Source: Pseudomonas phage 5371. From it: a stretch of DNA of 59,238 bases. The notes under the pieces were generated by a model. That model did not search any database, was not told where the DNA came from, and worked only from the letters and a program-made list of their open reading frames with translations. The position numbers and the translations under genes were made by a program. Shown here one piece after another: positions 1,949 through 26,789 of this stretch (its first letter is position 1; every line of letters starts with the position of its first letter). The stretch lies in sequence record PQ758388.1; one strand, 5' to 3'.

Positions 1949-2023
1949 GGCAATCCCTTATTGATCAGTTGTCAGCAGGTCACGACGCTATCAATCGCCC
2001 GTGCATGACGCCAGACCTCGAGG

Positions 2024-2371
2024 TCACAGTTCTCTTGTCCAGTCGCCGAGCCCCTTCGCCTTCATCTTTTCGAAAGTCTGGCGCGCACGCTCAACCAGCA
2101 TGGGAGCCAGGGGGACACCCTGCTCGTCTACGAGAACCTCAACGAGTGAGCACCTGCATCCCTCTGAATTGCCATCACGCGCATACCACTCCCTTACCTG
2201 ATAAGCAGTGAAAAGCTTTCCATGCCTTGCCGCGTGAGAGGTTCGGGTATCTGGACGAAGGGCCGATAGATGCATAAACAAAGTCCTGCAACCGTAGCTG
2301 CTGGACGCGCTATTCAGCTTAGCCATTCGATTCGCATGGATGCTCGCTGAGTCGATTTCCTTTTTAGCCAC
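2024..2371 (-). CDS. hypothetical protein, divergent from the antirepressor gene
   Basis: ORF only; start uncertain. Confidence 0.3.
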   Translation of the reverse strand: MAKKEIDSASIHANRMAKLNSASSSYGCRTLFMHLSALRPDTRTSHAARHGKLFTAYQVREWYARDGNSEGCRCSLVEVLVDEQGVPLAPMLVERARQTFEKMKAKGLGDWTREL

Positions 2372-2478
2372 CCCAGCCCCTCATGAACGTTGACGAATGC
2401 TGGCGTTTATTCCATATTCCGCCTGCCGCTGCAAATTCAGCGGCCTGGGATTGGCCTCCCAGACTGAAGGCGGACACA

Positions 2479-2499
2479 GCCGCTTAAAGCGGTTTTTTT
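2479..2499 (+). terminator. weak terminator-like hairpin plus T7 run in the antirepressor leader
   Basis: GCCGC-TTAAA-GCGGT followed by TTTTTTT. Confidence 0.3.
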
Positions 2500-2646
2500 G
2501 TGTCCATAGCACGGCACCAGTTTATGGGCGGGCCGTGTGGGCACTCGCAAGAGTGGCCGGTTCCTTCAGCCGGTAGGCCAACCCGCACGGTCCCGCCCTC
2601 CAGATTGGCCTCTGGCGGCGGACTCTAAACTGAAGGAGTCCTCATC

Positions 2647-12375: not shown

Positions 12376-15300
12376 TTATCGCCTCCAAAGCAGACCGTTC
12401 TGCCCCAACTCTTCCCGAATGACGCTCCGGACCTCCTCCCGCAAGGCCAGCCCGGCAGCCTCTCCCTGCATTCGAGCTTCCTCTTGGCTCATGCCGGGCT
12501 GGGCATTAACCGTGACCGGAGCGTTGATAGTGATCGACGGCGCCTGTCCAGCCCCAGCACTCGCGCCGCCTTCCCTGCTGAGGAAAGCAGTCAGGTCCCT
12601 GTTTTGATTCGGACTGAGCACCCGCTCACCAGCATCAAGCAGCCAGGTACTCTCCTTCGGGATGTTGTCGATGCCGCCGTGCGCGATGCCCGCGAAGGCC
12701 GCCGAAGAAACTCCAGCAACCATTGGCGCGGTAGCTGCGGCGGCAGCCGCAGCAGCACCAGCAGCCAGGCCAGGGCCAACAATCGGGATGGCAGCCGTCG
12801 AGGCAAAAGCTGCTAGCTGTGCCTGGAACGCCGTTGCCTGAGCATTGGCGACCAGCCCGATTGCCGCAGTCGATTGAGCCGTCTTCCCTACGACCAACTG
12901 CACCGCCTGGTAGACAAGCCACTGGGCGGCCATGTCAGCCAGGGCCTTGATGACCGACTTAGCCAGGTCCGCAGCCATGTCACCGAACGCATCTCCGAGG
13001 CTCTTGGTCCGCGTGACGATATCGGTGATTGCATCGCCCAAGCCGTTGGTAGCATCGCCAAGTGCGCCAGACACGAAGTCAGAGGCCTGCTTCGAGTAAT
13101 TCTGTGCATCCTCCACGTAGGTTTCCCATGCGGAGCGGGCTCCAGACACCCAGTCCCCCTGGGCCTCAAGTCGAGCATCGTAGTTTGCCTGCAACTGCTC
13201 CAGCATTTGCTCATGGTGTTTCTGCTGAGCCTGAAGTTCCTGCTGGTACTCGTCGTCGCTCATCCCGACCGATCTGTCTGCGTAGCGGTCGGCAAGATCC
13301 CTGCGGGCCTTGGCGTAACGGTCATTCTCCTCGTTCAGCTTGTCGAACAGCCCCCTCTGGCTATCGCTCATCCCCATCCCGAGGATTTCGCGTTGCCCTT
13401 CGAGCTTGAGATTGCCCAAGCTCTCGTCCATCGCGGACTTGATCTCTCTGAGCCGCTTCACGAACGGATTAGCCGCGTCCACTGCGGAGTTGAACGACTT
13501 GGCCGCCCAGTCGATTCCCTTCGCATACTCCTGGCTCGTGATCTTTCCCCTGTCCTTCAGGATGTTGAGGGCTTCGATGTTCTTCCTGTACTCGTCCGTC
13601 GCAGTCGCGGTAGGGTCTATCTCCTTCTTGAGGTCCCGATACCGCTCCTCAGCCTGCTTCAGCCCCTTCGCAGAGTCCTTCAACAGGTCCTTCTGGGACT
13701 TGGTCGAGGCATTCGCCTTGTCCACGGCTGCGGCATAGGCCAGGGCGCGCTTTTCATCGTCAGGACTTAGCTTCAGGATGCCAGCGTTGACCTGGGCACG
13801 GAGCTTCTCTACCTCGGTCAGTTTGCCGGCGACAACGCTCTGCTTCTGCAAATTATCCAGATAGCTCGCGCCAGCCTTATCCGAAGCGAACCTTGCACCG
13901 TCCAGTTCTCGCTGTGTCTTCTGGATGGCAAGGCGCAAGGACTCTGCTTTCTCCTTTGCCTCGTCCAGCGAAGGACCAAACGGAACGTCGGTATTGTCGT
14001 CAACGCCCTTCTGGAACCGCTCCTGAAGCGCCTCGGCATCCTTCAATTGATCCTGAAGGCCCGCCAACTGCTGCTTCAACTGCTCATAGCTGAGCCCGGA
14101 AAGATCCTCCGGAATCATCGTCCGAGCGGCCTGACGGATGCGGGTGGAGGCGTCTTCGAAAGCATTGGCCGCACGACCAGCATTACTCTCGGCCTTGTCC
14201 CCGAAATCGACGAAGGACAAGGCTACCATCCCCAGCGAGATGATCAGCCCCGGCCATCCAGCAGCAATCCTGAGAATCCCCGCGCCTGCTGTTCTCAGGG
14301 CATTTAACCCTGCCCCCAAAGCTGTGCTGGCCGCGAACCATCGGCCCATTGCGGCCGTCGAGGCAGTTTGAGTTGCGGTAAGTTGCAAGTTCGCCGCAGA
14401 AAGCGCTTCGGTTGCAGACACTCGCTGAGCAAGGGCTGCGGTAACCGCCTGCGAGCCCGCCACGGAGGTGGCCGTCAATTGCGCCTCGGCAGCCTGAAGC
14501 TGCTTGATGATGGCCGTTTCGGATAGCCGTAACTCGGCCATTCGAGCGACAGACTGCTGTCGGCCAATCTCTGTGATTTGGGCCTTCAGCCGCTGACCTT
14601 CGAGTTCGCGCTCAGCCACAAGCGATGCCTGTACGGCCCGCAAACGAGAGATTTCGGAGGCTTGCCGCTCCCGATCAGCAGCCACCTGTGCACGAGCAGA
14701 AGCCACGGCTTGGCGGGCTCGGTCTAACTCAGCAACGGCCTCGGCCTTGACCGCCTGGGCGCGTCGCACCTCTCCGGCCGCAGCAACCGACGCAGCATAG
14801 GTCTGCTCCTGGGTCGCCTTGGCGTCTGCGATCTTGGCAGCCGTCGCGCTTACCAGAGCGCCAGCAGTACGTCCGATCGCCAGATACAGCCCAGTATTCA
14901 GGACCTGGACGAAGGCCTGTACGCCCGTAGAGTCAAGCGACTTCGACAGGGAAACCATGGCTTCCGTAAAAGCCTTGGACACCCCGAGAGTGCTATCTAG
15001 GCTGCCGATCGCTTTGGTCGCGCTGTTCTCCAACACTTGAAACGCGCCAGCGATAGTGGTCTGGGCGCGCGCAAACTGGTCATCAATAGCGCGTGTTTGA
15101 GACAGGATCGCCTCGAAGACCTGCTTGGAAGTCAGCTTGCCCTGTTCGCCAAGCTTTCGAAGGTCTCCAACCGCAACCCCGAGACCGTTTGCGACGGCTT
15201 GGGCCAGGCCTGGAGCCTGCTCAAGTACCGAGTTCAACTCCTGTCCTCGGAGCACGCCAGAGGCAAAGGCCTGTCCGAGTTGCACCAGCGCACCTTCCGC

Positions 15301-15765
15301 AGCGGCAGCGGAAACACCACTGGCCGACATGGCCTTGCTGATGTTCTGGGTCACCTGGACAACTTGCTGTTGATTTACCCCGAGGTCGCCAGTTGAAGCG
15401 GCAATCCTCTGGTACAGCTCCGCAGTGCCCTCCAAAGATGACCGCGCATTCTGAGCGACGGAATACACTGCATCCATCGACTGACTGAACTGAGCCTGAC
15501 TTTCGCTGACCTGCTTGATGCGGTTCTCAATAGAGACCCAGGCTTGCGAATATCCAACAAGTTCTCGGGCGCTCAGATAAGCAGCCGCCGCAACACCAAT
15601 AGACTTGATAGCGCTAACTGCCGTCGAACTCGCCCGCTGCGTGCTTTGCTCGATCCGCCCCATACTGCGCGCAGTATCCTGGGCTGCACGATTCATGTTC
15701 TGCTGAAATCCCCCAATGCGCGCAATGAGGTCGAGCGTCAGCACACCAAGGGAGCGAGAGGCCAT
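12376..15765 (-). CDS. H: tail tape measure protein
   Basis: 1129 aa, Ala/Gln-rich coiled coil with hydrophobic Gly/Ala-rich C-terminal region; downstream of G/GT. Confidence 0.85.
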   Translation of the reverse strand: MASRSLGVLTLDLIARIGGFQQNMNRAAQDTARSMGRIEQSTQRASSTAVSAIKSIGVAAAAYLSARELVGYSQAWVSIENRIKQVSESQAQFSQSMDAVYSVAQNARSSLEGTAELYQRIAASTGDLGVNQQQVVQVTQNISKAMSASGVSAAAAEGALVQLGQAFASGVLRGQELNSVLEQAPGLAQAVANGLGVAVGDLRKLGEQGKLTSKQVFEAILSQTRAIDDQFARAQTTIAGAFQVLENSATKAIGSLDSTLGVSKAFTEAMVSLSKSLDSTGVQAFVQVLNTGLYLAIGRTAGALVSATAAKIADAKATQEQTYAASVAAAGEVRRAQAVKAEAVAELDRARQAVASARAQVAADRERQASEISRLRAVQASLVAERELEGQRLKAQITEIGRQQSVARMAELRLSETAIIKQLQAAEAQLTATSVAGSQAVTAALAQRVSATEALSAANLQLTATQTASTAAMGRWFAASTALGAGLNALRTAGAGILRIAAGWPGLIISLGMVALSFVDFGDKAESNAGRAANAFEDASTRIRQAARTMIPEDLSGLSYEQLKQQLAGLQDQLKDAEALQERFQKGVDDNTDVPFGPSLDEAKEKAESLRLAIQKTQRELDGARFASDKAGASYLDNLQKQSVVAGKLTEVEKLRAQVNAGILKLSPDDEKRALAYAAAVDKANASTKSQKDLLKDSAKGLKQAEERYRDLKKEIDPTATATDEYRKNIEALNILKDRGKITSQEYAKGIDWAAKSFNSAVDAANPFVKRLREIKSAMDESLGNLKLEGQREILGMGMSDSQRGLFDKLNEENDRYAKARRDLADRYADRSVGMSDDEYQQELQAQQKHHEQMLEQLQANYDARLEAQGDWVSGARSAWETYVEDAQNYSKQASDFVSGALGDATNGLGDAITDIVTRTKSLGDAFGDMAADLAKSVIKALADMAAQWLVYQAVQLVVGKTAQSTAAIGLVANAQATAFQAQLAAFASTAAIPIVGPGLAAGAAAAAAAATAPMVAGVSSAAFAGIAHGGIDNIPKESTWLLDAGERVLSPNQNRDLTAFLSREGGASAGAGQAPSITINAPVTVNAQPGMSQEEARMQGEAAGLALREEVRSVIREELGQNGLLWRR

Positions 15766-15783
15766 TTAGCTTTTCTCCGGACA

Positions 15784-15806
15784 ATAAAAAACCGCCCGAA
15801 GGCGGC
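15784..15806 (-). terminator. rho-independent terminator between the morons and the tape measure gene
   Basis: CCGCC-CGAA-GGCGG followed on the minus strand by TTTTTTATT. Confidence 0.4.
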
Positions 15807-15906
15807 TTGCATAGGGATTTTCTACTTCTTCAGATAATCATCCCCATTGAATATGATTTTCGGCCAATTTTAGTTTGGCCGATGCCAGTACAGACATGCC
15901 CATATC

Positions 15907-16218
15907 TCATATCTCAGACCGACAATGTCGGCATAGCTTAGCCTCCTCTCTGACGGCTTCCGCGCAATATGGGCATTTCTTAAAACCATTCGATATACCG
16001 ACATCCACTGCGGCCTGACGAGACGAGCGTTCAGACGCTTGCTTATCTTCCCCTAGAATAAATATAAGAGGTATGGCGATTATCGGAGCGAAGAAACCAA
16101 AGACAAACCATAGGGCTATACTTCTTCTGCGAGATGCTGCCAGATACGCAGAGATTGACGCCAACCAAACCCCGAAAAACAAAATAGAAACCCAATTATT
16201 ATAAACTTCCTCAAACAT
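15907..16218 (-). CDS. moron: small membrane protein with C-terminal zinc ribbon
   Basis: Two TM segments plus CPYC...CRHC. Markedly AT-rich relative to flanks. Confidence 0.45.
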   Translation of the reverse strand: MFEEVYNNWVSILFFGVWLASISAYLAASRRRSIALWFVFGFFAPIIAIPLIFILGEDKQASERSSRQAAVDVGISNGFKKCPYCAEAVREEAKLCRHCRSEI

Positions 16219-16254
16219 ATCTTACCTGCCGATTAAATCAGAAACTAAAACAGC

Positions 16255-16584
16255 TTACCGACCAAATCTTGCAGGGGATGGAGAGGAACCTGCCCTGCTA
16301 TACCCTGTAACCTTTCCATCTGGACCAAGAATTACCGAAAGCCCCTGGGTTTCTGTGCCAGCCCCCATAAACCCAACATAGGCATACCCCCAGGTAAGTA
16401 CACGGCTCCCATCTGAATTGTATTGTTCCGCCATGGGCTTGCCAAAAATCGAAATCAACTGATCCTGAGTTGTTTGTCCCTGCACAATTCTATCCACCTG
16501 CTCCTGCGTAATCTCTTTTCCACTAGAGGCGCATCCACTTAAAACAGCAGTTAGAACTATTGAAGCAACCAATATATTACGCAT
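16255..16584 (-). CDS. moron: secreted lipoprotein
   Basis: Start at MRNILVASIVLTAVLSGCASS with lipobox LSGC and a GGGAGGG RBS. ORF formally extends to 16671. Confidence 0.55.
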   Translation of the reverse strand: MRNILVASIVLTAVLSGCASSGKEITQEQVDRIVQGQTTQDQLISIFGKPMAEQYNSDGSRVLTWGYAYVGFMGAGTETQGLSVILGPDGKVTGYSRAGSSPSPARFGR

Positions 16585-16681
16585 TAACAACCCTCCCGGT
16601 GGTGATCGCCCGGAATCTAGCACGGAGCCAGCATCCTCGCCAACCGGAGCGCCAGCACAGGAACCCGGCATCCTTGCCAGG

Positions 16682-16948
16682 TCAAACCCATGCGGCCATG
16701 GCTTGCTCGAGCGAGATACCCACCGGCTCTACCGGCCCCCGAACATGGGGGCGGAAGTCGTCGGGTTCGCACTTCACACCCCCTACCTTGGCCTGAATCG
16801 CGGCTAACTGAGCCAGCACCCACTCCAGGCGATAGCTCCCGTTGAGGGAGCCACGCTTTTTCAGGTAGGCAACCCACGCCCTGTACTCATCGTAGTCGAT
16901 GCGCTCCTTCGCCTCGCGAATGGTGCAACCGCCGATGCCGTTCAGCAC
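16682..16948 (-). CDS. T: tail assembly chaperone T segment, C-terminal extension of the G-T -1 frameshift fusion
   Basis: Open -1 frame continuous from the slippery site: KKLTPADEVWHELVLNGIGGCTI... Confidence 0.6.
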   Translation of the reverse strand: MLNGIGGCTIREAKERIDYDEYRAWVAYLKKRGSLNGSYRLEWVLAQLAAIQAKVGGVKCEPDDFRPHVRGPVEPVGISLEQAMAAWV

Positions 16949-16977: not shown

Positions 16978-17328
16978 TCAGTTTTTTTCGTCACCCGGCG
17001 CCGTGCCATTTACCTCCGCGACAGCCTGCAAGAGCAGGAAGCCCAACGCAGGGTCGAGGTTGAACGCAGTTTCGTAGGGAATCTCTTCCTCGCCACCCTC
17101 GCCCAGTCTGACGCTCTCAGCCAGGTAACGCGCATTCTGGCTCTTCTTGTCGTCGTCTTGGGCGAACAGGCGTTCCATGGCACCGAAACTGCTGCGTTTG
17201 ATGAACACGTCGAAGGTGTCCGTGACCGCCTTTTTCTTGCCCGGCGGAGTGTGCGTCCAGGTGATGCTTTTCTTCACCAGTCCATCGCCAAGGACCGCGC
17301 CAGCGGCCACCAGATCGGCTAGTTTCAT
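16978..17328 (-). CDS. G: tail assembly chaperone G
   Basis: About 116 aa immediately before the tape measure region; ends ...GDEKN* on a heptanucleotide slippery site. Confidence 0.65.
   Translation of the reverse strand: MKLADLVAAGAVLGDGLVKKSITWTHTPPGKKKAVTDTFDVFIKRSSFGAMERLFAQDDDKKSQNARYLAESVRLGEGGEEEIPYETAFNLDPALGFLLLQAVAEVNGTAPGDEKN
16981..16995 (-). other. programmed -1 ribosomal frameshift site (slippery GAAAAAAAC; GGT GAC GAA AAA AAC TGA)
   Basis: A7 run on the coding strand 3 nt before the gpG stop; the -1 frame is open into the T ORF. Confidence 0.7.
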
Positions 17329-17337
17329 ATCTGCTCC

Positions 17338-17865
17338 TTACGCGGTTTTCGTAATCCACTGCCCTGCGCCAGAGCGCTGGATCGTGGCCTGGGTGGCGAC
17401 CAGGGTGTTGGCTGCAAAATCGAACGGGAAGTCGCTGACGTAACCACGGAAAACGAACCATGTACGCGTCGGCGGAAGATCAAAGTCCCAGTCGCCAGTG
17501 CTGTCTTGATCTGCGGACGGGCTTACACCGACACCATCTGACCAGCCGACAGCAAAGACAATATCCTGGTCACTGTCATCCTCTGAGAGCTGAAAAAGCC
17601 GAACATGGCTCGCATTCCGCGGATCTGCGTTCAGTCCGAGAGTGGCCTGACCAGGGGTGCGCATGCCCTTCTTGTATTTGCGCGAGGTTTCACTCAGGCA
17701 AGGATCCTCGATCTGGTCTGCCGGGTTACCGCCAGGGTTAAACGAGGTTGCGCACTCGATCTCCATCACCGTAAAAGGACCAGATCCAGAGGGGGGCGGA
17801 ACAAGGGCATAGACCTGAGTTCCTTGGGTAAGCATCGACATAGCGTCTTCTCCTGTAGCAAGCAA
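17338..17865 (-). CDS. V: major tail protein
   Basis: 175 aa, position between the tail terminator and the G/GT chaperones. Confidence 0.6.
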
Positions 17866-17904
17866 TAAAAACCCGCGCGGTGGCGGGCTGATCGGTTTAG
17901 GTGT

Positions 17905-18273
17905 CTATCGCTGGACTATCCAGTCGATGTCAAAGCTAACTCGGTAGGTCTTGGTTTCAGGGTCAACAGACTCTCCTCCCCAGCGGACTACATAAGCTGA
18001 AAGCTCAATTGCGTCCCTGATGGCCTTTGCTGCATCTCTGGCTTCCGCAGCGGTGGTTGAGAAAATGTCCACCTGGATGGTGAACCCATCGGCGTCAGGG
18101 CGGCCCCACAGGTAGTTCTCCGGCGACCCCGATATGGTCTGCCATGTTGCATACGGTTTGACGACGAGTTGGGGGGCCAGGCCAAACTGGTACATCCTCA
18201 GCGGGGACGCGCCAAGGATCGCAGTAACAGCGGGGCTACTTGAGCAGACCTTAAAGATTGGCGGATGCATCAC
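17905..18273 (-). CDS. tail terminator / tail completion protein (gpU-like)
   Basis: About 120 aa directly upstream of the major tail gene. Confidence 0.45.
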   Translation of the reverse strand: MMHPPIFKVCSSSPAVTAILGASPLRMYQFGLAPQLVVKPYATWQTISGSPENYLWGRPDADGFTIQVDIFSTTAAEARDAAKAIRDAIELSAYVVRWGGESVDPETKTYRVSFDIDWIVQR

Positions 18274-18785
18274 CTTCCCCTTAGAGCCTTGTCTATTTCG
18301 CCATCAAGCTCGGATATGAATTTTTCAGTAACGGGCTCAATGTTTTGAGACAGAGCAGGCCGCATGAAAGGCTTGGCCGGCGAGTACTTGGTGCCTAACT
18401 CCAAGTAGCGCCAGTGTCTGGTGTCGCCACCAGGATTTCCGCTTGCATCCTTGCTGTACTGGTTTCGACCAGCACCACCGCGCACTCCAACCTTCATCAC
18501 CACTCCCCCCTCACGCCGCCCCTGCTTGGCGGACTCTTGAGTGATGATGTTCTTCCAGATTTTCTCTGGTGTTTCGGGATCATCGACAAGTCGCGCCCTT
18601 TCTCGTGCGGCATCTCTGACAATGTTCATCGCCCTGCGGGATGCTTTTCTCAGGCCGTTCTTTTGAAGTCGCGGGCCAAGAGTTCTGAGTTTCTCGAGCA
18701 CGCCTTCAAGCCCGGTGATGTTAAACTCAACGCCGTCAGCCATGGACCCTCCGGAACGCAAAGCTGGTGATGCCTTCTCGGCCAA
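18270..18785 (-). CDS. HK97 gp10-family head-tail protein; likely start MADGVEFN at 18743
   Basis: C-terminal RYLELGTKYSPAKPFMRPA matches the HK97 gp10 family signature. Confidence 0.55.
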   Translation of the reverse strand: MAEKASPALRSGGSMADGVEFNITGLEGVLEKLRTLGPRLQKNGLRKASRRAMNIVRDAARERARLVDDPETPEKIWKNIITQESAKQGRREGGVVMKVGVRGGAGRNQYSKDASGNPGGDTRHWRYLELGTKYSPAKPFMRPALSQNIEPVTEKFISELDGEIDKALRGR

Positions 18786-19353
18786 GGTCGGATTCCGCCT
18801 GGTTCATCTCCACCAGTTCGAAGCCATGCCGCTCGCACCAGGCAACCAGGCCCGGAAGGCTCCAATACCAGCAATGCTCACCCGGCTTGTAATGCTTGGA
18901 GGCCAGGCAGTCAGCCTGATCCTTATAAATCGGCATCGACACGAACAGCCACTCGCCAACGTGGCCCAGCAGTTTCTCCGGCTCCGGGATGTGCTCCAGG
19001 CTGTCCCAGCAGGTCACAGCTTCTGCGTGGTGCTGGTACGGATCGTAATAGCGCTCCTGCGCCCTCAGCCAAGCCACCGCTTCCGGATTCACGTCAAAGC
19101 CCATCGCGCCGGACTCTGTGACGAAACGGCCTCCGCCGATACCGATATCTACCACCTGTCCGGCAAAGTGACGGCGCACCAGATCGATGCGGCACTGAGT
19201 CAGCGCAGCGCCCATCGGGGTAGCGTCAAGCAGCTGGTACTTCTCGAAATACGGCCCGCTATAGTCCATCGGAGGACGCGGGTGGAAGCCCATGCCAAGC
19301 TCTTCAGACCAGAGCAGGCAGTCGGTCAGCCCAGGCGGCAAAGCGTTGGTCAT
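18736..19353 (-). CDS. class I SAM-dependent methyltransferase embedded in the head-tail operon; start possibly the internal Met at 19293
   Basis: Motif I VVDIGIGGGRF plus downstream acidic motif DPYQHH...CWDSLEH. Translationally coupled to neighbours. Confidence 0.6.
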   Translation of the reverse strand: MTNALPPGLTDCLLWSEELGMGFHPRPPMDYSGPYFEKYQLLDATPMGAALTQCRIDLVRRHFAGQVVDIGIGGGRFVTESGAMGFDVNPEAVAWLRAQERYYDPYQHHAEAVTCWDSLEHIPEPEKLLGHVGEWLFVSMPIYKDQADCLASKHYKPGEHCWYWSLPGLVAWCERHGFELVEMNQAESDLGREGITSFAFRRVHG

Positions 19354-20131
19354 GATCGGTGATCCTTTTGTCGCAGTTGTGCTGTTTCATGGTGCAGCGG
19401 CAGAACCTGTCGGGAACCGCGAAGGTGATGCGGGACAGGTCCATGCATTTGTCGGTGATGTGTTCAGGCGAGTTGTAGCCGCCCTGACCGCCGCAGATGA
19501 TCCAGGCCGGAACCTTGGCGGCGATGCTGGCCGGAACAATCCAGCCGATGCCGCCAATCACGGCATCTGCGTGCTGGAGCAGCGCCAGCAGTTGTTCAAC
19601 CGGAAGTTCGCCCTTGTGGAACTGGATGTCAGCCGGCGGAAGTGGATCGAGCGCCCACTCCTTTCCCGGCTCCAGGTCCGCCACGGAAACCACTTTCCAG
19701 CCCCTGCGGCGCATCTCTTCGGCAGCGCTGGCGATGTACTCAGGCAGTGGGTTGCGCGTGTCTGCACGCCACTCAGCGCGAACCGTGGCTGGGCGAACCA
19801 GCACATAGCGGCCATTGACCGGCGACGGGCCGAAGTCAGGCAAATCGAACGCACCGGGCTCGCACCGGAAAGCTTGTCGCAAGCCCTGGATGATCGGCAT
19901 CTGTCCGTATGCGATTCGTAATTGTCCACCACCGAAAGGCTTGTGCCACTGCGCCGGGCGCTGGACGTTCTTCGCTTGCGTGCGGAGTTGGGTGATTGGA
20001 CGCACGCATTTCACATCGATGTCTGAATAGAGTTGCGGCCATGGCGTTTCGAGATAGGCGCCCTGGTGTTTCTTCACGAACGCGCGCGCGTAGATATTGT
20101 CACCAAGGCCAAGCATTCCGCGGATAAACAA
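19304..20131 (-). CDS. GT-B glycosyltransferase, GT9 (heptosyltransferase)-like, embedded in the head-tail operon
   Basis: N-terminal GMLGLGDNIYARAF; C-terminal LLALLQHADAVIGGIGWIVPASIAAKVPAWIICGG resembles the GT9 nucleotide-sugar binding region. Confidence 0.45.
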   Translation of the reverse strand: MFIRGMLGLGDNIYARAFVKKHQGAYLETPWPQLYSDIDVKCVRPITQLRTQAKNVQRPAQWHKPFGGGQLRIAYGQMPIIQGLRQAFRCEPGAFDLPDFGPSPVNGRYVLVRPATVRAEWRADTRNPLPEYIASAAEEMRRRGWKVVSVADLEPGKEWALDPLPPADIQFHKGELPVEQLLALLQHADAVIGGIGWIVPASIAAKVPAWIICGGQGGYNSPEHITDKCMDLSRITFAVPDRFCRCTMKQHNCDKRITDHDQRFAAWADRLPALV

Positions 20132-20139
20132 GCGACCTC

Positions 20140-20496
20140 CTAGCGTCCGTCCGTCAATCCATCAGAGCAGCGCAGTCTCCATTCGCGCCGAGCGGTGACA
20201 TCGGTCTCTGCGCTGGTGATGTTGTAGACTCGGCCATCCCAGAGGATGCGCCAGGTGTAGAGTTCCAACCGCTCAACGGGGAACCATCGACAATTGATCC
20301 TGGCAGTGGTCTCCGCCTGCGTAGCATCGGCAGCGATCAACTCGCGACCTGGTCCAGTCAGAACCTCGGCGGGAAGGTCGGCGCGACCGGAGAACAGAAC
20401 GGTCTCCCAGGTCGTCACCATTTCCCCTGTATCAGGGTCTTGTGTTTGGACCTGCCGCTGAAACTGAATGCGGTGGCGCATACGGTAGGCCAGCAT
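20140..20496 (-). CDS. head-tail joining / head closure protein
   Basis: 118 aa, position after the gp6-like connector. Confidence 0.5.
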   Translation of the reverse strand: MLAYRMRHRIQFQRQVQTQDPDTGEMVTTWETVLFSGRADLPAEVLTGPGRELIAADATQAETTARINCRWFPVERLELYTWRILWDGRVYNITSAETDVTARREWRLRCSDGLTDGR

Positions 20497-20817
20497 TCAA
20501 ACCCCCAAGCCGCATCGGTACGGCATCAGCTTCACCTCGGCCGCCTTACGCAGCGTCGCGATTTCATCGGGAGCAGCCTGATAGCTGGCCTGAAGTAACA
20601 GAAGCACTCCGATGACCACGCTAGGCGGAAGGCCCGGCTCGCTACTGACAGCCTCACTACTCTCTTCGCAGTTGCAAAGGCCATCAAGGGACTGGCGCCA
20701 CATGAACTGGCAGGCCTCGTCCTCCGCTCCATCAAGCAGCAACTGGAGCTTGGCGTCATCCCAATCGTGGATCACATCAAGAAAGGACTTTGCCGTATCA
20801 AGCGGGATCAGGCTCAT
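20497..20817 (-). CDS. gp6-like head-tail connector protein
   Basis: MSLIPLDTAKSFLDVIHDWDDAKLQLLLDGAEDEA is the gp6-like N-terminus. Confidence 0.6.
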   Translation of the reverse strand: MSLIPLDTAKSFLDVIHDWDDAKLQLLLDGAEDEACQFMWRQSLDGLCNCEESSEAVSSEPGLPPSVVIGVLLLLQASYQAAPDEIATLRKAAEVKLMPYRCGLGV

Positions 20818-21394
20818 TCAGCGCGTCCTCCAGCGGTCTACGCGCGAAACAGGTAAGCGCCGTTTCGCGTGTGCAATTGATGATTTCTATCCCAGGGTTC
20901 TTGCGCTTCAGGTTTTCGAACTCTACCGGCCACTCGGATATCTTCCCTGCACTACCCAGTCCTCTGGGGTGATCACCATGCCAGTGAGACATCCCACCAG
21001 TTTTCTGCATGTCGTAGCCGAGAAGGATGATTCGCTTGGCGCCCCTGGCTATGGCCAAAGAAACTGCGCCGCCGCCTGAGTTTCTGTAGTGCTCGATGCG
21101 TGCCGTCTTGATGCCGAATGGATTGGCGCTGAGCGTCAGAAGCTCACCGCAGAAGTTTGCTTTAGCCTCGGCGGCGTATCTCTCCCACCAGACTTTATCC
21201 ATTGCCCACAGCGCATCAGCCCAGGGAGTCAGTCGGAACGTTGTGTTCGTGCAGATGGCCGCCCTCTGCGGCGAGGAGTTCCGCCACTCTCGGACTCGTT
21301 CGCAGTCTTCTGCTGTGAGGCTGGGGCCGCTTGCGATGCAGACGGCGACTCGCCAGCCACAGGCTTTGGGATCTCTGATTCCACAATCTGGCAA
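20798..21394 (-). CDS. hypothetical protein, possibly Maf/MptE-like (DUF115) Rossmann protein
   Basis: VAVCIASGPSL... then RIILLGYDMQ motif recalled from the DUF115/Maf glycosylation-associated family. Inference only. Overlaps 21229-21522. Confidence 0.3.
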   Translation of the reverse strand: MPDCGIRDPKACGWRVAVCIASGPSLTAEDCERVREWRNSSPQRAAICTNTTFRLTPWADALWAMDKVWWERYAAEAKANFCGELLTLSANPFGIKTARIEHYRNSGGGAVSLAIARGAKRIILLGYDMQKTGGMSHWHGDHPRGLGSAGKISEWPVEFENLKRKNPGIEIINCTRETALTCFARRPLEDALNEPDPA

Positions 21395-21522
21395 AGTCCG
21401 CGCGCCACCAACTGGCGAGCCAGGTGCTCGGATGCGAGGTATGCATCACCACCAGCCTTTCTCACACGACCGCCATCCAGGTATGAACGAACCGGCTTGA
21501 TCATTACGTCAGACATAATCAC
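21229..21522 (-). CDS. hypothetical small protein after the capsid gene; C-terminal low-complexity part may be overprinted
   Basis: ORF immediately downstream of the major capsid gene; overlaps 20798-21394 by about 165 nt. Confidence 0.25.
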   Translation of the reverse strand: MIMSDVMIKPVRSYLDGGRVRKAGGDAYLASEHLARQLVARGLCQIVESEIPKPVAGESPSASQAAPASQQKTANESESGGTPRRRGRPSARTQRSD

Positions 21523-21561
21523 CTCAAAGAAAGAGGGGGCCGGGAGACCGGCCCCTTCCAG

Positions 21562-22749
21562 TCAGCTGGCGGTCAGCGAACCAGTCACGAAAGCCTCGGG
21601 GCGATAGACCGCGAAGGCCAGCCGCTCCTCAGCGCGGATAGTGACCATGTTGTTCTCGAAGTCCTTGTCGTTCTCGGTGGAAACCAAAACCTCGATGTCC
21701 ATGCGGTCGAATATCTGGGCGCCGAGCGAGAAAGCTCCGGTCAGGAACTCGTCCTGAGTGATGGCCTGGGTTTCCACCACCGGCAGACGCCAGAGGGTCG
21801 GAGTGGTGCCGTTCTGCGGGCTGCCGATGATGTAGCGGTTCTCGGCGTCCTTGGTCAGCTCGATCAGCGCCCAGTCGATGGGGTTGAGCACGATACCGCT
21901 GGCCGGGAACTCGGCCAGTTGCGCCTGAAGGATCGCCAGGCGGATGCGGTCGATTCGCTGCTCGGCAGTCACCACTACGCCGCTCGGCGGAGCGTAGGCC
22001 TGTGCCTGCGGAATGATGCCGTGCAGATTGGCACCGGTTCCGTTTCCGTAGAGCAGTTGACCTTCTTCGACCAACATCAGGCCGTAACGAGCGCGCGCAT
22101 CGATGTAGCTCTGCAAGGCCGATGCGTCGTCCAGGATCTGGCGACTTGCCTTGAACAAGTGGGCGATGGTGCGAACCGGCGCGTTTTCCAGCTCGAAGGT
22201 CAGGTCCGAGTACGGCTTCTGGGTGCCTTCCGAAACAGGAGCGGCATTGTTGACGAAGCCGGTCTCGCGAACGTACTCGACGGAGTTCGATTCAGTGGTG
22301 CCCGGCGCAACCAGGTCGCGGATGGTCAGTCGACGCTGCGGAGCGGCAACGACACCGGGGCGACGATCAGGAGCAACCAGGGCACCGCCAGAGCTGTCGA
22401 TGGAGGTGATGGCCGAGCGCGGCATGGATACGCGATGCGAACCGCGCAGGGAGCTGGTTACACCCTGCTCTTTCAGGCTCTCTGCGACCATTTGGCCGGC
22501 GGTCTTCGGTGCTTCCTCGCCGCCGTCACGCTTCTCGTTGGCCAGCATGGCTTGTTCTGCGGCGCTCAGCCGTGCTTGCAGTTCGCCCTGAGCGGTCAGC
22601 AGTTCGTCGACCTTGGCTCGGGTTTCCTTGTTCATCTCGCCGAAGTTGGCGATTTGGGTGTTGACCTGTTCGGCCTGGGCCTTGATCTGATCGCCGACCT
22701 GCTTGAGGCTGGTGTTCAGTTCGCCGATTTGTTTCTCGAAGTCGCTCAT
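21562..22749 (-). CDS. major capsid protein, HK97 family
   Basis: 395 aa with N-terminal delta-domain-like coiled coil (MSDFEKQIGELNTSLKQVGDQIKAQAEQVN...) followed by an HK97-type fold; follows the protease. Confidence 0.85.
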   Translation of the reverse strand: MSDFEKQIGELNTSLKQVGDQIKAQAEQVNTQIANFGEMNKETRAKVDELLTAQGELQARLSAAEQAMLANEKRDGGEEAPKTAGQMVAESLKEQGVTSSLRGSHRVSMPRSAITSIDSSGGALVAPDRRPGVVAAPQRRLTIRDLVAPGTTESNSVEYVRETGFVNNAAPVSEGTQKPYSDLTFELENAPVRTIAHLFKASRQILDDASALQSYIDARARYGLMLVEEGQLLYGNGTGANLHGIIPQAQAYAPPSGVVVTAEQRIDRIRLAILQAQLAEFPASGIVLNPIDWALIELTKDAENRYIIGSPQNGTTPTLWRLPVVETQAITQDEFLTGAFSLGAQIFDRMDIEVLVSTENDKDFENNMVTIRAEERLAFAVYRPEAFVTGSLTAS

Positions 22750-23636
22750 TGCGATTCTCCTTGGAGGAATTTAGTGATGTCTTGTGCTGCCCGTAGTGCA
22801 GCGGAGAGGTCAGGAGCGACAGCGCCAGGCATATCGGTCGGGGTGTCACCACCCCCGCCAGCAGCGCCAAGCATGCTGGTCTTGAAGTCATTGATGAGTT
22901 CATTGCGCTGGCTTCGCGGCATGCCGCTGCGAGCCAGAGCGGCATCCATCCGGCGCTTGGCCAAGATGGCTTCACTGCGGTTGCTCGGCGCACTGGAGAT
23001 CTCGTCGGATTCCAGGAAGGCATCTGCCCACCCCTTGTCGACGGCTTCGCGCCCGCCGATCCAGGTCTCGGCGTCCATCTGCTTCACGATGTCGTCGATA
23101 TCGATGCCGGTGCGCTGCGCGTAAATGTCAGCCAGCGTCATGTCGAATGGCTCCAGCCAGTCGGCGATCTCACGCAGGTCGTTCCGATTGCCCATGGCGA
23201 TCAGCCAGGCGTTGTGGATCATCAGGAAGGCGGCGCGGCCAATGCGGATTTCATCCCCTGCCATGGCGATAAAGGAGGCGGCAGAGGCAGCCAATCCGAT
23301 GATGTTCACCGAGACCTTGCCCTTGTGCTCGCGCAGCAGGTTGTAAATCGCCAGCCCCTCGAACACGTCGCCGCCCGGACTATTGATATTCACGGTCACA
23401 TCGACATCGCCGCCGATGGCGCGCAGCGCACCGGCAATGCGTTTCGCGGTTACGCCCTCGCCGGTCCACCAGTCATAACCGATGGGCTCGTAGATGGTGA
23501 TGGTGGTGTCGGGGTTATCGCCGGACGCGGCGCGAAGCTCAGGACGCCATGCATCCAGCGCTTTTGGCGCCAGGTCGCACTGGACGCCCGAGCGCGGGCG
23601 AGCCTCCGGCGCTGCCGGAAGATTTCGCAGAGTCAT
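22746..23636 (-). CDS. prohead maturation protease, ClpP/S14 family
   Basis: TIYEPIGYDWWTGEGV...NINSPGGDVFEGLAIYN...AASAASFIAMAG. Confidence 0.8.
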   Translation of the reverse strand: MTLRNLPAAPEARPRSGVQCDLAPKALDAWRPELRAASGDNPDTTITIYEPIGYDWWTGEGVTAKRIAGALRAIGGDVDVTVNINSPGGDVFEGLAIYNLLREHKGKVSVNIIGLAASAASFIAMAGDEIRIGRAAFLMIHNAWLIAMGNRNDLREIADWLEPFDMTLADIYAQRTGIDIDDIVKQMDAETWIGGREAVDKGWADAFLESDEISSAPSNRSEAILAKRRMDAALARSGMPRSQRNELINDFKTSMLGAAGGGGDTPTDMPGAVAPDLSAALRAAQDITKFLQGESQ

Positions 23637-23639
23637 GGG

Positions 23640-24944
23640 TTACTCCTGTGGTTCTGGCTGGCTGAGCCAGTTCATGAGTGCGGCGCGAACCGCCTGGCTC
23701 TCATTGGATTGACCGAGTTGGTCGAGGGGGACAAGGTTGGATTGCACAGTCAGGATGTCGCCGCCGGGAAGCTCTGGAAGGTTCTCTTTCCGGCGACCTT
23801 CATTGCGAGTCATGAATCCGTTTTGCGCCATGGTGCTGTACCAGGCAGCGCGACCCGCGCTATCAGCTTTCAGGAATCCCTCAAGGGAAAACTCGGCGTA
23901 ATAGCGAATCCGCTCGGGCGCAGTTAGCAGCCGCTTGTTGACGCACTGCTGAATCTGATTGGTGATCGAACTGATCGAGAATGTCAGGAACGCGAGCATC
24001 TGCTGTTCAAGCCCGGTCCCCCAGTTACTCCCTTTGTCGGTCTGACCAATCATCCAGGGCGGAACCCCGAACCATCTGCAAATCTCGATCACTCCATGCT
24101 CTCGCGTCTCCAGCAACTGAGCATCGACTGGGTTGATGCCGATAGTCTCAGGGGTAATACCCTGCTCCAGTACAGGGGACCTCCCAGCGTTCATAGCGCC
24201 AGATATGGACTTCACGTACTCCCTGAACTCCTCCCTCTGCGCAGGCTGGAGAATGCGGTCGACCTTGAATGCGACCGTGGGGAGCAGTCCGTTCTTGAAT
24301 GTGCCGTTGGCGGCATCCTCCGCCGACATGACCGAACCGAAGACATCGACGCCATACCGGATGGCAGAGAGACCGACTCTGCCATCCAGCGTGAACGCCG
24401 GGATGTGCAGCATGTTTGTGCGCTCGATCTCTCTACGGGCACCCTTCTTTGGCGTGTAGAAGTACTTCAGCCGACCGTTGTCATCACACTCCAGGTCGAC
24501 CCTCGATGGAAGCAGGAAGTCCAGCGCAGCAGGCCTACCGGCAGCACGACGAATCTCCGCGTATGCGTTCCCCCAAAGCAACATCGATGCGACCATGGCT
24601 TGCCAGAACTGGAAGGCCGTCATGTCGTCATTGGGGCTGTTGTGAACAACATCGTAGAGCGGGAACGACCGAGCATCGACTCTGCTCCCGTCCGCTTTCC
24701 GCTCGTACACTCCAAGCGGCAGGCCGGCGACAGAAGTAGAGATCAAGCGAACGCAAGCCCATACCGCGGACAGCTTCATTGCCTTGTCGACAGTGACCTT
24801 CTTCCCGCTCGAGGACTCTCGCCCCAAGAACTGCGACCAGAACGCGCCATCTGTCAGGCGGATGGTCTTATCCCCCCAACCGAACAATGAAGACCTGGGC
24901 GCAGACGTAGCACTGCTCAGGACTTTTCCGAGACTCTTACTCAC
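23640..24944 (-). CDS. portal protein, HK97 family
   Basis: 434 aa between TerL and the protease; GTG start. Confidence 0.8.
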   Translation of the reverse strand: MSKSLGKVLSSATSAPRSSLFGWGDKTIRLTDGAFWSQFLGRESSSGKKVTVDKAMKLSAVWACVRLISTSVAGLPLGVYERKADGSRVDARSFPLYDVVHNSPNDDMTAFQFWQAMVASMLLWGNAYAEIRRAAGRPAALDFLLPSRVDLECDDNGRLKYFYTPKKGARREIERTNMLHIPAFTLDGRVGLSAIRYGVDVFGSVMSAEDAANGTFKNGLLPTVAFKVDRILQPAQREEFREYVKSISGAMNAGRSPVLEQGITPETIGINPVDAQLLETREHGVIEICRWFGVPPWMIGQTDKGSNWGTGLEQQMLAFLTFSISSITNQIQQCVNKRLLTAPERIRYYAEFSLEGFLKADSAGRAAWYSTMAQNGFMTRNEGRRKENLPELPGGDILTVQSNLVPLDQLGQSNESQAVRAALMNWLSQPEPQE

Positions 24945-25101
24945 TGGTCAGCCCCTTGCGAATGAACGCCGCGATAGCGAATGCTGACGCTGCACCGGAA
25001 ATGAGCGCCCAGCCGAGCCCCAGCAGCACAAAGGTTCCGGCTACGAAAAGAGCCAGACCAAGGACGCCGAAGAAGAGGTAGAGGCCAGTTGCGATGTTCA
25101 T
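24937..25101 (-). CDS. small two-TM membrane protein (54 aa), not in the supplied ORF track
   Basis: ATG overlaps the TerL stop (ATGA); MNIATGLYLFFGVLGLALFVAGTFVLLGLGWALISGAASAFAIAAFIRKGLTSE. Confidence 0.25.
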   Translation of the reverse strand: MNIATGLYLFFGVLGLALFVAGTFVLLGLGWALISGAASAFAIAAFIRKGLTSE

Positions 25102-26789
25102 GCGATGATGGGATTCCGTATGGCGTTCATGAAGTCGTCGCCGTCATCAACTCCGGCAACCAGGGCGCGCCCCATAGCCATGATCAAGGTCACTGGACCG
25201 TCGATCTTGCAGTTGGGGTCGTTGTCGTTTTCCTTGCGCGGGTAGATGTTTTCCTTGGCATCGATCTTTGCCGCCACATTTCCCATCATCCAGGTCATGA
25301 CTGGGTTTCCGTCATGCCAGAGCGTCCGCGCTATCACCCTCGCCTCCACCTCCTTCATCGGGTCGCTCATGTTCTTGACCGTCTGGTTGAAGTCCACGAC
25401 CGGGATTGAGGTGTTCGAGAGGCGTGTAATCAGGTAGTTGGCCTGCCAGTCGTCGAAGGCGGCATCCTGCAGGTCGATCTGTTTTGCTAGGTCAAGGATG
25501 TCTGCCTCGATAAAGGCGTAGTCCGTCATGCTCCCTGGCGTCAGGATCAGGTGACCTTCAAGTGCGAAGTTCTGATACTTCTCGTTTTCCTCAGCGGCGG
25601 CCTCTGGAGCGTAGAAGCGCGGAATGCAGTAGAACTGACCAGCTTTCTCGAACAGCATTACCAGGGCGGCCACGTCTTTCTTGCTGGCAAGGTCCAAAGC
25701 CATCCAGCAGCGACATCCGGCCATGTCCGCAATCGTGAAGTCGCGCTTCTGCCGCTGCCAGGCCAGCATGTTCATCCAGACCGTCCTAGCCCCCACCCAC
25801 TGGTTCAGATGCTTGGTGCGGAAGGCGTTCTGCTTCGACGCCGAACGCTTGGCCTGCTGGAGCTGGGCCAGGAGGAAGTCAGGGAATACCGACACTCCGT
25901 AATTCGGATTGGCCTTGATCAGGCTGGCCGGGTCATCCCACGGATCATCCTCGTCGATCGTGTAGATGATCCCGAAGATCGTCTCATCGATCGTCTGCCC
26001 CTCGAGAATGCGGATCACGTCCCTGCGCTTCTCGTAACATGGGCCGCCGAGATTCGACCCCGCCGTCGTAATGATCGAAAGCAATGGCTGCTCCCGCGCA
26101 CCCATGCCTGTCTGCATGGTATCCACCAAGGCGTCTGTGTCGTGTTCGTGGTACTCGTCCACCAGAGACGCATGGGGGCTGGCTCCATCCCCGGGGTTTC
26201 CGATCACCGTCTCGAACTTCGACATGTCCTCCATGACGAACATGGGGCCAGGGTTCTTCTGGTTGCCAGAAAGCTCGATGCCGAACCGGTTGCGCAGATT
26301 CTCCAGCTTGTGCGCCATCATCCAGGCCGGGCGAAATACCTCGAATGCCTGCTTCTCGGTGGTAGCGCCGGAGTAGACCTCGGCCCCCGACTCGCCATCT
26401 GCGGCGAATAGGTAAATGCCTCGTGCGGCAAGACGGGCCGACTTCCCGTTCTTCCTGGGAATCTCTTCGTAGGCCTCGCGGAACCTGCGCTTGCCGGTGT
26501 CCTTCTTCACCCAGCCGAAGATGTTGGCCTCGATGAATACCTGCCAAGGCTCGAACACTAGCTTCGACTTCGAAGCGCTCCATTTGCCTTTGGTGTGAGG
26601 CATGAGCTGCATGAACTTGACAGCACGATCTGCCTTGGCCTCATCGAAAACGTATGGCCAATCGTCATCGCCCTGGCGGTCCAAGTCATTCAGAAAGCGC
26701 TGGCATGCAAGCTTCACATACCGGCACGCAACGATAGCCCCACCCACGACATCGCTAGCGTACTGTCGCGCAATGTCGCTGGGGGTCAT
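25098..26789 (-). CDS. terminase large subunit
   Basis: 563 aa; N-terminal ATPase and C-terminal nuclease-like regions; adjacent to portal. Confidence 0.8.
   Translation of the reverse strand: MTPSDIARQYASDVVGGAIVACRYVKLACQRFLNDLDRQGDDDWPYVFDEAKADRAVKFMQLMPHTKGKWSASKSKLVFEPWQVFIEANIFGWVKKDTGKRRFREAYEEIPRKNGKSARLAARGIYLFAADGESGAEVYSGATTEKQAFEVFRPAWMMAHKLENLRNRFGIELSGNQKNPGPMFVMEDMSKFETVIGNPGDGASPHASLVDEYHEHDTDALVDTMQTGMGAREQPLLSIITTAGSNLGGPCYEKRRDVIRILEGQTIDETIFGIIYTIDEDDPWDDPASLIKANPNYGVSVFPDFLLAQLQQAKRSASKQNAFRTKHLNQWVGARTVWMNMLAWQRQKRDFTIADMAGCRCWMALDLASKKDVAALVMLFEKAGQFYCIPRFYAPEAAAEENEKYQNFALEGHLILTPGSMTDYAFIEADILDLAKQIDLQDAAFDDWQANYLITRLSNTSIPVVDFNQTVKNMSDPMKEVEARVIARTLWHDGNPVMTWMMGNVAAKIDAKENIYPRKENDNDPNCKIDGPVTLIMAMGRALVAGVDDGDDFMNAIRNPIIA

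Follow-up and report, generated by a model that had tools for sequence, protein, structure and literature searches.

The genome of Pseudomonas phage 5371 (PQ758388.1), whose 59,238 nucleotides (nt) are hereafter the window, carries on its minus strand, embedded in the head-tail operon, three genes that code for a Maf/CstII-like protein of the DUF115 (MptE-like) type with a glycosyltransferase fold (open reading frame, ORF, 20798-21394; 198 amino acids, aa), a GT9-like protein of GT-B fold (19304-20131; 275 aa), and a class I S-adenosylmethionine (SAM)-dependent methyltransferase (18736-19353; 205 aa). They correspond to orf7, orf12 and orf13 of phage D3. Judged from gene neighbourhoods and natural fusions, the three genes are one functional module. 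In this lineage the DUF115 enzyme is very probably made by a programmed -1 frameshift from orf6.5, a small ORF directly downstream of the capsid gene, and the module as a whole, expressed late, may glycosylate and O-methylate a phage morphogenetic or virion protein, a reading that we hold at about even confidence. Positions 17300-22800 match 16 Pseudomonas aeruginosa phage records, including D3, PMG1, PP9W2 and vB_Pae_U7, with 90-95.5% identity over at least 90% of the length, and the window is therefore assigned to a D3-like (Detrevirus-type) prophage.

Three enzyme genes form one module

The association of the three genes is constant in the viral set, for which 80 viral contigs were fetched with the GT9-like protein and searched by tblastn for the other two genes. 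The DUF115, GT9-like and methyltransferase genes occur together in 80/80 viral loci, in three gene orders. The D3-type order runs from the major capsid protein (MCP) gene through orf6.5, DUF115, the head-tail adaptor Ad1, the head closure Hc1, an optional insert, the GT9-like gene and the methyltransferase gene to the HK97 gp10-like gene, with Ad1 and Hc1 dividing the enzyme module in two; in the PAJU2-type order (Hc1, DUF115, GT9-like, methyltransferase, gp10) the enzymes are contiguous, and the compact type reads MCP, DUF115, GT9-like, methyltransferase. The overlap between the GT9-like and methyltransferase genes is conserved across the viral loci, and the methyltransferase is every time the final gene of the island, adjoining the gp10-like gene. 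Moreover, an exhaustive profile search resolves the GT9-like family into 819 clusters at 50% identity, and the best 150 of these, in which fusions were examined, include at least nine clusters with DUF115::GT9-like fusions and three with methyltransferase::GT9-like fusions, together with single clusters fused to LicD and to an intein-interrupted canonical PF01075 GT9 domain. Natural fusions of this kind are classical evidence of a shared pathway, which is thus indicated for the module enzymes.

The island is variable around this core. In distant phages (L084, L086, L087, L171) DUF115 is followed by two to six more enzymes, and many of the loci L090-L169 likewise carry DUF115 plus additional island enzymes, among them GT9-like paralogues, a GT-A transferase (phrog_1962), methyltransferases including FkbM-type ones, and a protein with a weak sulfotransferase match. 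The site is between the capsid gene or head closure on one side and gp10, tail-completion or tail-tube genes on the other. A scan of one genome per species yielded 80 loci from Gamma-, Beta- and Alphaproteobacteria, in the genera Pseudomonas, Bordetella, Achromobacter, Pandoraea, Xanthomonas, Lysobacter, Halomonas, Marinobacter, Pantoea, Citrobacter and Bosea. Most of these genome loci lie in prophage structural modules (Hc1 in 53/80, a capsid gene in 47/80), while in about a dozen of the 80, often on short contigs, the searches found no structural gene; seeming gaps after DUF115 hold more transferase- and methyltransferase-like ORFs. Variable content combined with a constant initiating enzyme and a terminal methyltransferase is, by analogy, the behaviour of a glycan gene cluster. 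No sugar-nucleotide synthesis genes were seen in the island, so the donors must be nucleotide sugars of the host, for which ADP-heptose and CMP-Kdo are attractive candidates in view of the fold relatives of the enzymes and of the restriction to bacteria that make lipopolysaccharide (LPS).

PAJU2-like phages with expanded islands also encode collagen-repeat proteins (PF01391) adjoining portal/head genes (1941-3491 in locus L086; 2313-3155 and 5490-6308 in locus L087). In such phages they are possible head fibres and might be considered as acceptors of the glycan.

Coupling to the late structural operon

The original prediction had placed the enzyme genes inside the head-tail connector operon, translationally coupled to it and with the GC content of the phage, and most of this picture stands. 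The three ORFs lie on the minus strand at the coordinates given above and match phrog_6564, phrog_6804 and phrog_4603. Their neighbours are structural genes, as had been predicted, all on the minus strand: an HK97-type MCP (21562-22749), Ad1 (20497-20817), Hc1 (20140-20496), the gp10-like gene (18270-18785), the tail terminator (17905-18273) and the major tail protein (17338-17865), with matches to phrog_40 (E 3e-15) and PF05521 (E 2.8e-25) in the Ad1/Hc1 stretch 20140-20817. The location between head closure and gp10 is right for the GT9-like and methyltransferase genes but not for DUF115, which lies between MCP/orf6.5 and Ad1. Stops and starts interlock as had been described: the methyltransferase ATG at 19353 falls 50 nt within the 3' end of the GT9-like gene, the methyltransferase gene overlaps gp10 (ATG 18743) by 8 nt and the DUF115 gene overlaps Ad1 by 20 nt, while the Hc1 stop codon TAG falls within AGGAGG, the Shine-Dalgarno sequence of the GT9-like gene, whose TTG start is at 20131. 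The enzyme genes have a GC content of 0.58-0.61, like their neighbours (0.55-0.62), and a consensus scan of the minus strand from 18 to 21.5 kb detected no site resembling a sigma-70 promoter. With no internal promoter-like site and with coupled starts and stops, the enzyme genes appear to be expressed late, together with the structural operon.

A terminator-like hairpin with a perfect 8-bp G+C stem (eight G-C pairs), a loop of 4 and the T-rich tail CTCTTTCTTT occupies 21536-21555 on the minus strand, directly 3' of the MCP stop and 5' of orf6.5. It could be an attenuator that keeps the enzymes encoded downstream at a lower level than MCP.

Two observations concern the junctions of this region. 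For the gp10-like gene, the ORF finder chose TTG 18785, whereas ATG 18743, which follows GGAGG, is the likelier start and agrees with the D3 annotation. The junction between Hc1 and the GT9-like gene (20131-20140), a gap of only 8 nt in the window, is an insertion hot spot: D3 carries a KilA-N gene there (orf11; locus L001, 5779-6460), and many relatives (loci L005-L066) have 0.2-1.7 kb of additional DNA between the two genes.

Assignment of the enzymes

The 205-aa protein matches PF13489 (Methyltransf_23; E 2.2e-11, 44.2 bits against a cut-off of 27) and phrog_6564 ('methyltransferase'; E 1e-127). The SAM motif I D69-x-G71-x-G73-x-G75 is invariant in 16 diverse homologues, as are W116, D117, E120 and H121, and the top PDB matches of the profile are UbiG O-methyltransferases (E 0.003-0.02). 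The class I SAM methyltransferase of the original prediction is thereby borne out; by its motifs the protein is likely an O-methyltransferase of the UbiG/Methyltransf_23 type and does not look like a DNA methyltransferase.

The GT9-like gene, which has a TTG start with AGGAGG upstream, matches phrog_6804 (E 5e-175), and its assignment comes from predicted structure. The AlphaFold2 (AF2) model built with 36 homologues (pLDDT 92.7, pTM 0.91) has the two Rossmann domains of the GT-B fold and is nearest to heptosyltransferases of the WaaC/WaaF type. The nearest solved relatives include the LPS heptosyltransferases WaaC and WaaF as well as TibC, and the top BFVD matches are phage proteins named Aah/TibC, RfaF and GT9. 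G10-D11 is invariant among homologues at the end of the first strand, and its position after beta-1, as placed by alignment and model rather than by residue-level superposition, fits that of the catalytic Asp. The catalytic base of WaaC is D13. In TibC, the same role is played by D110 (PMC4358343). Near the C-terminus, C244-x-C246-x4-H251-x-C253 is also invariant in the family.

Several results weigh against reading this protein as an ordinary GT9 enzyme. It has no Pfam match at E <= 0.1, PF01075 included; the NCBIfam model TIGR04414 (TibC/Aah) reaches 13.3 bits (E 0.029, residues 130-214) against a cut-off of 200; and the canonical GT9 nucleotide-sugar motif 'D-S/T-G...H' appears, as read from the alignment rather than from superposed structures, to be replaced by the C-lobe consensus 'GGIGWIVP' ('GGIGW..P'), which makes the donor and even activity uncertain. 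Among the matches listed, 0/120 GT9-like homologues carry a precomputed Pfam domain; phmmer found no PDB match, a profile of 36 homologues found none at E <= 10, and hhalign gave no alignment between the GT9-like profile and E. coli WaaC. The proposed GT9 identity therefore holds for the fold and fails at the level of family models. On its model, the 275-aa protein is a compact GT9-like GT-B protein whose membership in GT9 is not demonstrable by sequence.

A metagenomic protein of 1032 aa (P0334) contains, in this order, a canonical PF01075 GT9 domain, a LAGLIDADG/Hint intein and a phage-type GT9-like domain. It ties canonical GT9 enzymes to the phage family, and inteins in glycosyltransferases are rare.

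The DUF115 ORF matches phrog_4603 ('alpha-2,3-sialyltransferase'; E 7e-72). Its PF01973 score of 15.9 bits (E 0.011) is below the cut-off of 34.6, its relatives reach 20.8-23 bits, and a few homologues have a precomputed PF01973 match. The AF2 model of the 198-aa ORF (pLDDT 90.8) shows the fold of the central Maf domain; Maf (5mu5) is the top structural match, and the domain also resembles MptE and thiamine pyrophosphokinases. The Maf/DUF115 kinship that had been suggested as a possibility is thus upheld by the fold and falls short of the Pfam threshold, and the full Maf architecture is absent, with 198 aa (239 aa as the frameshift product) against 632 aa in 5mu5. Invariant residues comprise ASGPS, N50, W58-A59, D66, N105-x-G107 and G126-x-D128-x-Q130, together with H137 and H142 within the consensus motif HWHGDH. 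A profile alignment with CstII, which is not significant (E 1.4-1.7), places ASGPSL over GNGPSL and NSG..LLGYD over TSG..LSGID; phmmer and profile searches of solved structures otherwise returned just spurious PPR or His-tag matches. Public annotations of the gene begin 3' of the GPSL loop, with 152 aa for D3 orf7 (L001, 7118-7576) and 134 aa in PP9W2 (L002, 4499-4903), and many PGAP calls are also 134 aa long (P0123). Those of D3 and PP9W2 are probably too short, because they cut off the invariant GPSL nucleotide-binding loop.

A member of the DUF115 family (P0237; L088, 3026-3628) sits in a non-phage chromosomal setting, flanked by genes for an oligopeptide ABC transporter and a short-chain dehydrogenase. 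Phages are thus not the exclusive carriers of this family.

A predicted -1 frameshift produces the DUF115 enzyme

orf6.5 (21229-21522, minus strand; likely start ATG 21516) matches phrog_7993 (E 2e-62). Its residues 1 to about 48 form a conserved N-terminal domain with sub-threshold similarity to DUF7210 (E 0.003-0.03), and a profile search with this domain retrieved seven small proteins only and no new architecture. The zero-frame tail that follows is rich in Ser, Ala, Pro and Thr and is an out-of-frame reading of the DUF115 N-terminus. Homologues of orf6.5 sit between the capsid gene and DUF115 in about 50/80 genome loci, and in 50/50 the reading frame of DUF115 is -1 relative to that of orf6.5; in the window the two frames overlap by 166 nt.

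Ribosomes translating orf6.5 would slip by -1 at the heptamer C CCA AAG (21370-21364, in the zero frame of orf6.5), joining residues 1-51 to the DUF115 frame (domain at 20798-21364, minus strand). The predicted product, read in the zero frame from 21516 to 21364 and then in the -1 frame from 21364 to 20798, is a 239-aa fusion of the N-terminal domain of about 50 aa and the DUF115 catalytic domain, while unshifted ribosomes would produce an orf6.5 protein of 95-97 aa. The N-terminal domain may target or oligomerise the enzyme, which in this lineage would not be initiated at a start codon of its own.

The conservation of the slip site and the lack of alternative starts argue for this mechanism. 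C CCA AAG is identical in 45/45 distinct D3-like sequences, four of them with diverged flanks, and a slip-prone motif occupies the same position, 9-12 nt before a Trp codon, in 42/42 aligned species-level loci (C CCN in 36, G GGA AAA in 4, A AAG GGC in 1 and A AAA AAC in 1). C precedes the Pro codon in 36/36, whereas its local frequency at third positions is 0.22. In 35/43 loci the DUF115 frame contains no ATG, GTG or TTG before the conserved Trp that opens the domain, and upstream of this Trp it is often open for just 15-33 nt; in the loci where DUF115 follows Hc1, a start lies 3-60 nt upstream and the zero frame is closed. Moreover, the same architecture, the orf6.5 domain followed by DUF115, is found in single-ORF homologues of 235-245 aa (P0144, P0146, P0153, P0154), of which P0153 is directly 3' of a capsid gene, and an alignment of the predicted 239-aa product with P0144 runs straight through the junction (E 7e-71).

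Two other readings of the overlap were rejected. The ORF 20798-21394 is present as the original prediction had it, but TTG 21394 is probably not the start of the gene: this codon, the sole in-frame start candidate in the window, lies 24 nt upstream of the slip site without a Shine-Dalgarno sequence and varies as TTG/GTG/CTG among the 45 D3-like sequences, which corresponds to synonymous Leu codons (CTT/CTG/CTC) of orf6.5, and most loci have no start at all. The orf6.5 tail was also considered as an independently selected glycosylation sequon. Its 'SSASPAAPAS' / 'ASPAAPAS' is the shifted reading of the DUF115 stretch 'CIASGPSL', the conserved tail SSASPAAPASPQTTAK of Beta- and Gammaproteobacteria (L090-L169) is the DUF115 motif CIASGPSLTAED out of frame, and codon-position variability in the 166-nt overlap follows the DUF115 frame. 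Since the tail is overprinted on that frame, its conservation is no independent sign of function.

On the minus strand, a GC-rich stem-loop could form at 21296-21363, beginning some 5 nt beyond the slip site, and might stimulate frameshifting. Over the 42 loci, pairing reaches 92% for a helix of 8 bp and 76.5% for a second helix of 9 bp in pseudoknot topology, both arms being conserved coding motifs. Some points weaken the case for recoding: the fold in the window is not unusually stable against shuffled sequences (minimum free energy -26.8 kcal/mol, z = -1.53), helix covariation is weak (4 pairs changed on both sides in the 42 loci), at most loci the site is 'C CCN', which involves a single tRNA, and not a canonical heptamer, and the counts overstate independence because the loci are phylogenetically related. 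With these points included, synthesis of the DUF115 enzyme by a programmed -1 frameshift is still considered very probable from the sequence comparison.

Function of the module and its acceptor

In the favoured reading, the DUF115 Maf/CstII-like transferase, the GT9-like GT-B transferase and the SAM O-methyltransferase would assemble a small methylated glycan on an acceptor that would be modified in the cytoplasm during particle assembly. That the proteins are active enzymes, which sugars they would use and that the acceptor belongs to the virion are all points that we infer, the last only from gene position and from the protein-glycosyltransferase relatives. A protein acceptor is favoured by the solved relatives of the two transferases, which include Maf, acting on flagellin, and TibC, acting on autotransporters; the virion is favoured by the placement among head-completion genes in three gene orders, by the coupling to structural genes and by the tethering of one enzyme to a domain encoded beside the capsid gene. 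On the other side, a 2.7 Å study of the D3 virion capsid built the capsid protein and mentioned no glycan, modification or decoration protein, the tails not being analysed, which makes it unlikely that the D3 capsid bears an ordered and abundant glycan. A glycan could still be located on the tail tube, the neck or the fibres, or at sites that are flexible or of low occupancy. A broader scheme, which we find rather doubtful, is that HK97/lambda-like temperate phages of Pseudomonadota (D3, PAJU2 and hundreds of prophages) coat a virion component with a methylated glycan that the phage specifies and that is built from LPS-type precursors of the host, that the conserved frameshift tethers the Maf-like initiator to a capsid-linked domain, that the Ser/Thr-rich zero-frame tail, overprinted on the active-site motif of the enzyme, is a possible acceptor or adaptor, and that both products would arise in a fixed ratio from one mRNA segment.

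The acceptor might instead, as the original prediction also allowed, be a glycan of the host envelope, LPS core or a lipid-linked glycan, to which heptose- or Kdo-type sugars and methyl groups would be added late in infection or at low level in lysogens, blocking adsorption of progeny or competing phages. WaaC and WaaF count among the solved structures nearest to the GT9-like protein, the family occurs only in Pseudomonadota, which make LPS, and D3 is a serotype-converting phage; however, the known O-antigen conversion genes of D3 lie elsewhere, and the module has no promoter-like site for expression in lysogens and a terminator-like hairpin upstream. Moreover, its genes are within the morphogenesis operon in 80/80 viral loci and most genome loci and not among conversion or moron genes, one of the enzymes is joined to a small domain whose coding sequence directly follows the capsid gene, and LPS made minutes before lysis would hardly alter the cell surface, which together render envelope modification unlikely. 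We regard as quite unlikely that the acceptor is a protein outside the virion, whether flagellin or pilin, a phage assembly factor that stays outside the particle, or the Ser/Thr-rich tail of orf6.5. Maf, the best structural match of the DUF115 domain, is indeed a flagellin glycosyltransferase, and the N-terminal domain common to the orf6.5 tail protein and the frameshift enzyme could place the substrate next to its enzyme, but the domains that flank the core in Maf are missing from the phage protein (198 aa, compared with 632 aa in 5mu5) and late modification of flagellin or pilin would be of no obvious benefit. As for the tail, its conservation is accounted for by the overlapping DUF115 frame, and phages with DUF115 after Hc1 have the enzymes and no orf6.5, which therefore is not the general acceptor.

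The two remaining explanations dispense with a protein or envelope glycan. That no glycan is built at all, the proteins being catalytically inactive folds that serve structurally or as chaperones when head and tail are joined or, for DUF115, a pyrophosphokinase-like enzyme acting on a small molecule, would agree with the failure of the GT9-like and DUF115 proteins to reach any curated family threshold and with the resemblance of DUF115 to MptE and thiamine pyrophosphokinases. It is improbable in view of the strict conservation of motifs of nucleotide-binding and catalytic type (ASGPSL, NSG, GYDxQ, HWHGDH and the GT9-like GD) over hundreds of clusters, of the steady association or fusion with bona fide methyltransferase, GT9, GT-A and LicD domains, and of an island content that varies as in glycan gene clusters. 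Finally, the module could glycosylate and methylate phage DNA before packaging, as hypermodification against restriction. Phage DNA glycosyltransferases of GT-B fold exist, late expression would suit modification before packaging as with Mom of phage Mu, and a preprint on virus-encoded DNA glycosyltransferases is available. Nevertheless, the near-identical phage vB_Pae_U7 encodes neither a hydroxymethylase nor a TET-like or other base-activating enzyme and has just one ordinary DNA methyltransferase, in the early region; the methyltransferase of the module has a Methyltransf_23/UbiG-like signature and not DNA methyltransferase motifs, and the nearest folds are LPS and protein glycosyltransferases, so that DNA as the substrate is very improbable. 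Glycosylation and O-methylation of a phage morphogenetic or virion protein is thus retained as the favoured function.

Other features of the window

Upstream of MCP, the minus strand carries the prohead protease (22746-23636), the portal (23640-24944) and the terminase large subunit (25098-26789), and downstream of the major tail protein the tape measure (12376-15765). Between the tail-chaperone genes and the tape measure, a likely moron occupies 15766-16700 on the minus strand, with ORFs at 16255-16671 and 15907-16218, one with an internal lipoprotein-type signal (MRNILVASIVLTAVLSGC) and the other coding for a small membrane protein with CxxC...CxxC. This region has a lower GC content (0.53), a promoter-like site at 16445-16417 and a terminator-like hairpin at 15789-15808.

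Novelty and significance

The enzyme genes are already in GenBank, in D3, PAJU2, PP9W2 and others, and several records name them 'Glycosyltransferase family 9', 'GTB-type glycosyltransferase', 'methyltransferase' or 'alpha-2,3-sialyltransferase'. A literature search returned nothing that links D3-like or other Gram-negative tailed phages to virion glycosylation, to DUF115 or to a frameshift at this place, and nothing on the function of PHROG families 6804, 4603 and 7993; one study reported no glycoproteins in ten unrelated phages. As far as can be told, the gene content was known, and the concept of a module, its breadth, the fusions and the frameshift are new.

If virion glycosylation proves true, the phage-encoded kind would extend from actinobacteriophages to a large group of temperate phages whose hosts are Gram-negative pathogens (Pseudomonas, Achromobacter, Bordetella, Pandoraea, Pantoea, Citrobacter), would bear on antibody recognition and clearance of therapeutic phages, on particle stability and on adsorption, and would assign a role to the widespread 'hypothetical' PHROG families 6804, 4603 and 7993. 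Whatever the acceptor, the predicted frameshift would be a new recoding event in the well-studied phage D3 and would correct the annotation of orf7, and the compact GT9-like and Maf-like enzymes could serve as minimal glycosyltransferases.

Comparison with known systems

The closest functional parallel is offered by mycobacteriophages of the Che8/Corndog/Myrna type, in whose virions, according to two reports, phage glycosyltransferases glycosylate structural proteins (PMC12582341, PMC12894461). On that description, the two systems share phage glycosyltransferases accompanied by a methyltransferase, the lack of sugar-nucleotide synthesis genes and a presumed cytoplasmic modification during assembly, and the glycan coat proposed here would be the same outcome. 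The hosts differ, being Actinobacteria in one case and Pseudomonadota in the other, and so does the genetic layout, since here the genes are interleaved with those of the head-tail connector and one of them would be reached by a frameshift; the folds here are GT9-like and Maf/CstII-like, and as far as can be told the enzyme families differ as well. According to the same reports the mycobacteriophage virion glycans have been demonstrated, whereas the D3-like system is known from its genes alone.

Among the relatives of the GT9-like protein, the bacterial autotransporter heptosyltransferases (BAHT) TibC and Aah (PMC4358343) are soluble cytoplasmic enzymes that O-glycosylate proteins with ADP-heptose, an LPS precursor of the host. 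They have 406 aa, compared with 275 aa here, a length that leaves no room for the 97-residue N-terminal beta-barrel of TibC, which is thus effectively absent. The invariant CxCx4HxC towards the C-terminus of the phage protein recalls the Cys-rich C-terminal motif of TibC, a 4-Cys iron finger. Further features of TibC are a beta-hairpin thumb, a dodecameric assembly and the sugar-binding residues K230, R286 and W305 (PMC4358343).

The DUF115 protein has the GPSL and (T/N)SG...G-x-D motifs in common with Maf and with the GT42 sialyltransferases CstI and CstII. Maf works in the cytoplasm on the subunit of a self-assembling helical polymer. In contrast to Maf, the phage protein consists of the core of about 190 aa only, with the unrelated orf6.5 domain at its N-terminus in the fusion, and, unlike both Maf and GT42, the phage family has the additional invariant HWHGDH motif. 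To our knowledge, PAO1-type hosts make no CMP-pseudaminic acid, and another donor, possibly CMP-Kdo, would therefore be needed.

The island also resembles the flagellin and pilin glycosylation islands of Gram-negative bacteria, in which an initiating transferase, of Maf type or other, stands with extra glycosyltransferases and methyltransferases, in variable content, beside the structural gene. Those islands are chromosomal and usually include sugar-nucleotide biosynthesis, whereas the phage island holds transferases only and lies in the head-tail operon.

Programmed -1 frameshifts in morphogenesis genes are known from the G/GT tail chaperone of lambda and from gene 10A/10B of T7. The predicted event is like these in its two products with a common N-terminal part, its site in a late operon and its fixed ratio of short to long product, and, with lambda, it shares a slip site of the form X XXY YYZ ending in A AAG (G GGA AAG in lambda, C CCA AAG here, G GGA AAA/G in other lineages). 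It differs in that the long product would be an enzyme of glycosyltransferase fold, not a chaperone or capsid variant, in the single 'C CCN' proline site of most lineages, and in being dispensable in lineages where DUF115 has its own start or an in-frame fusion.

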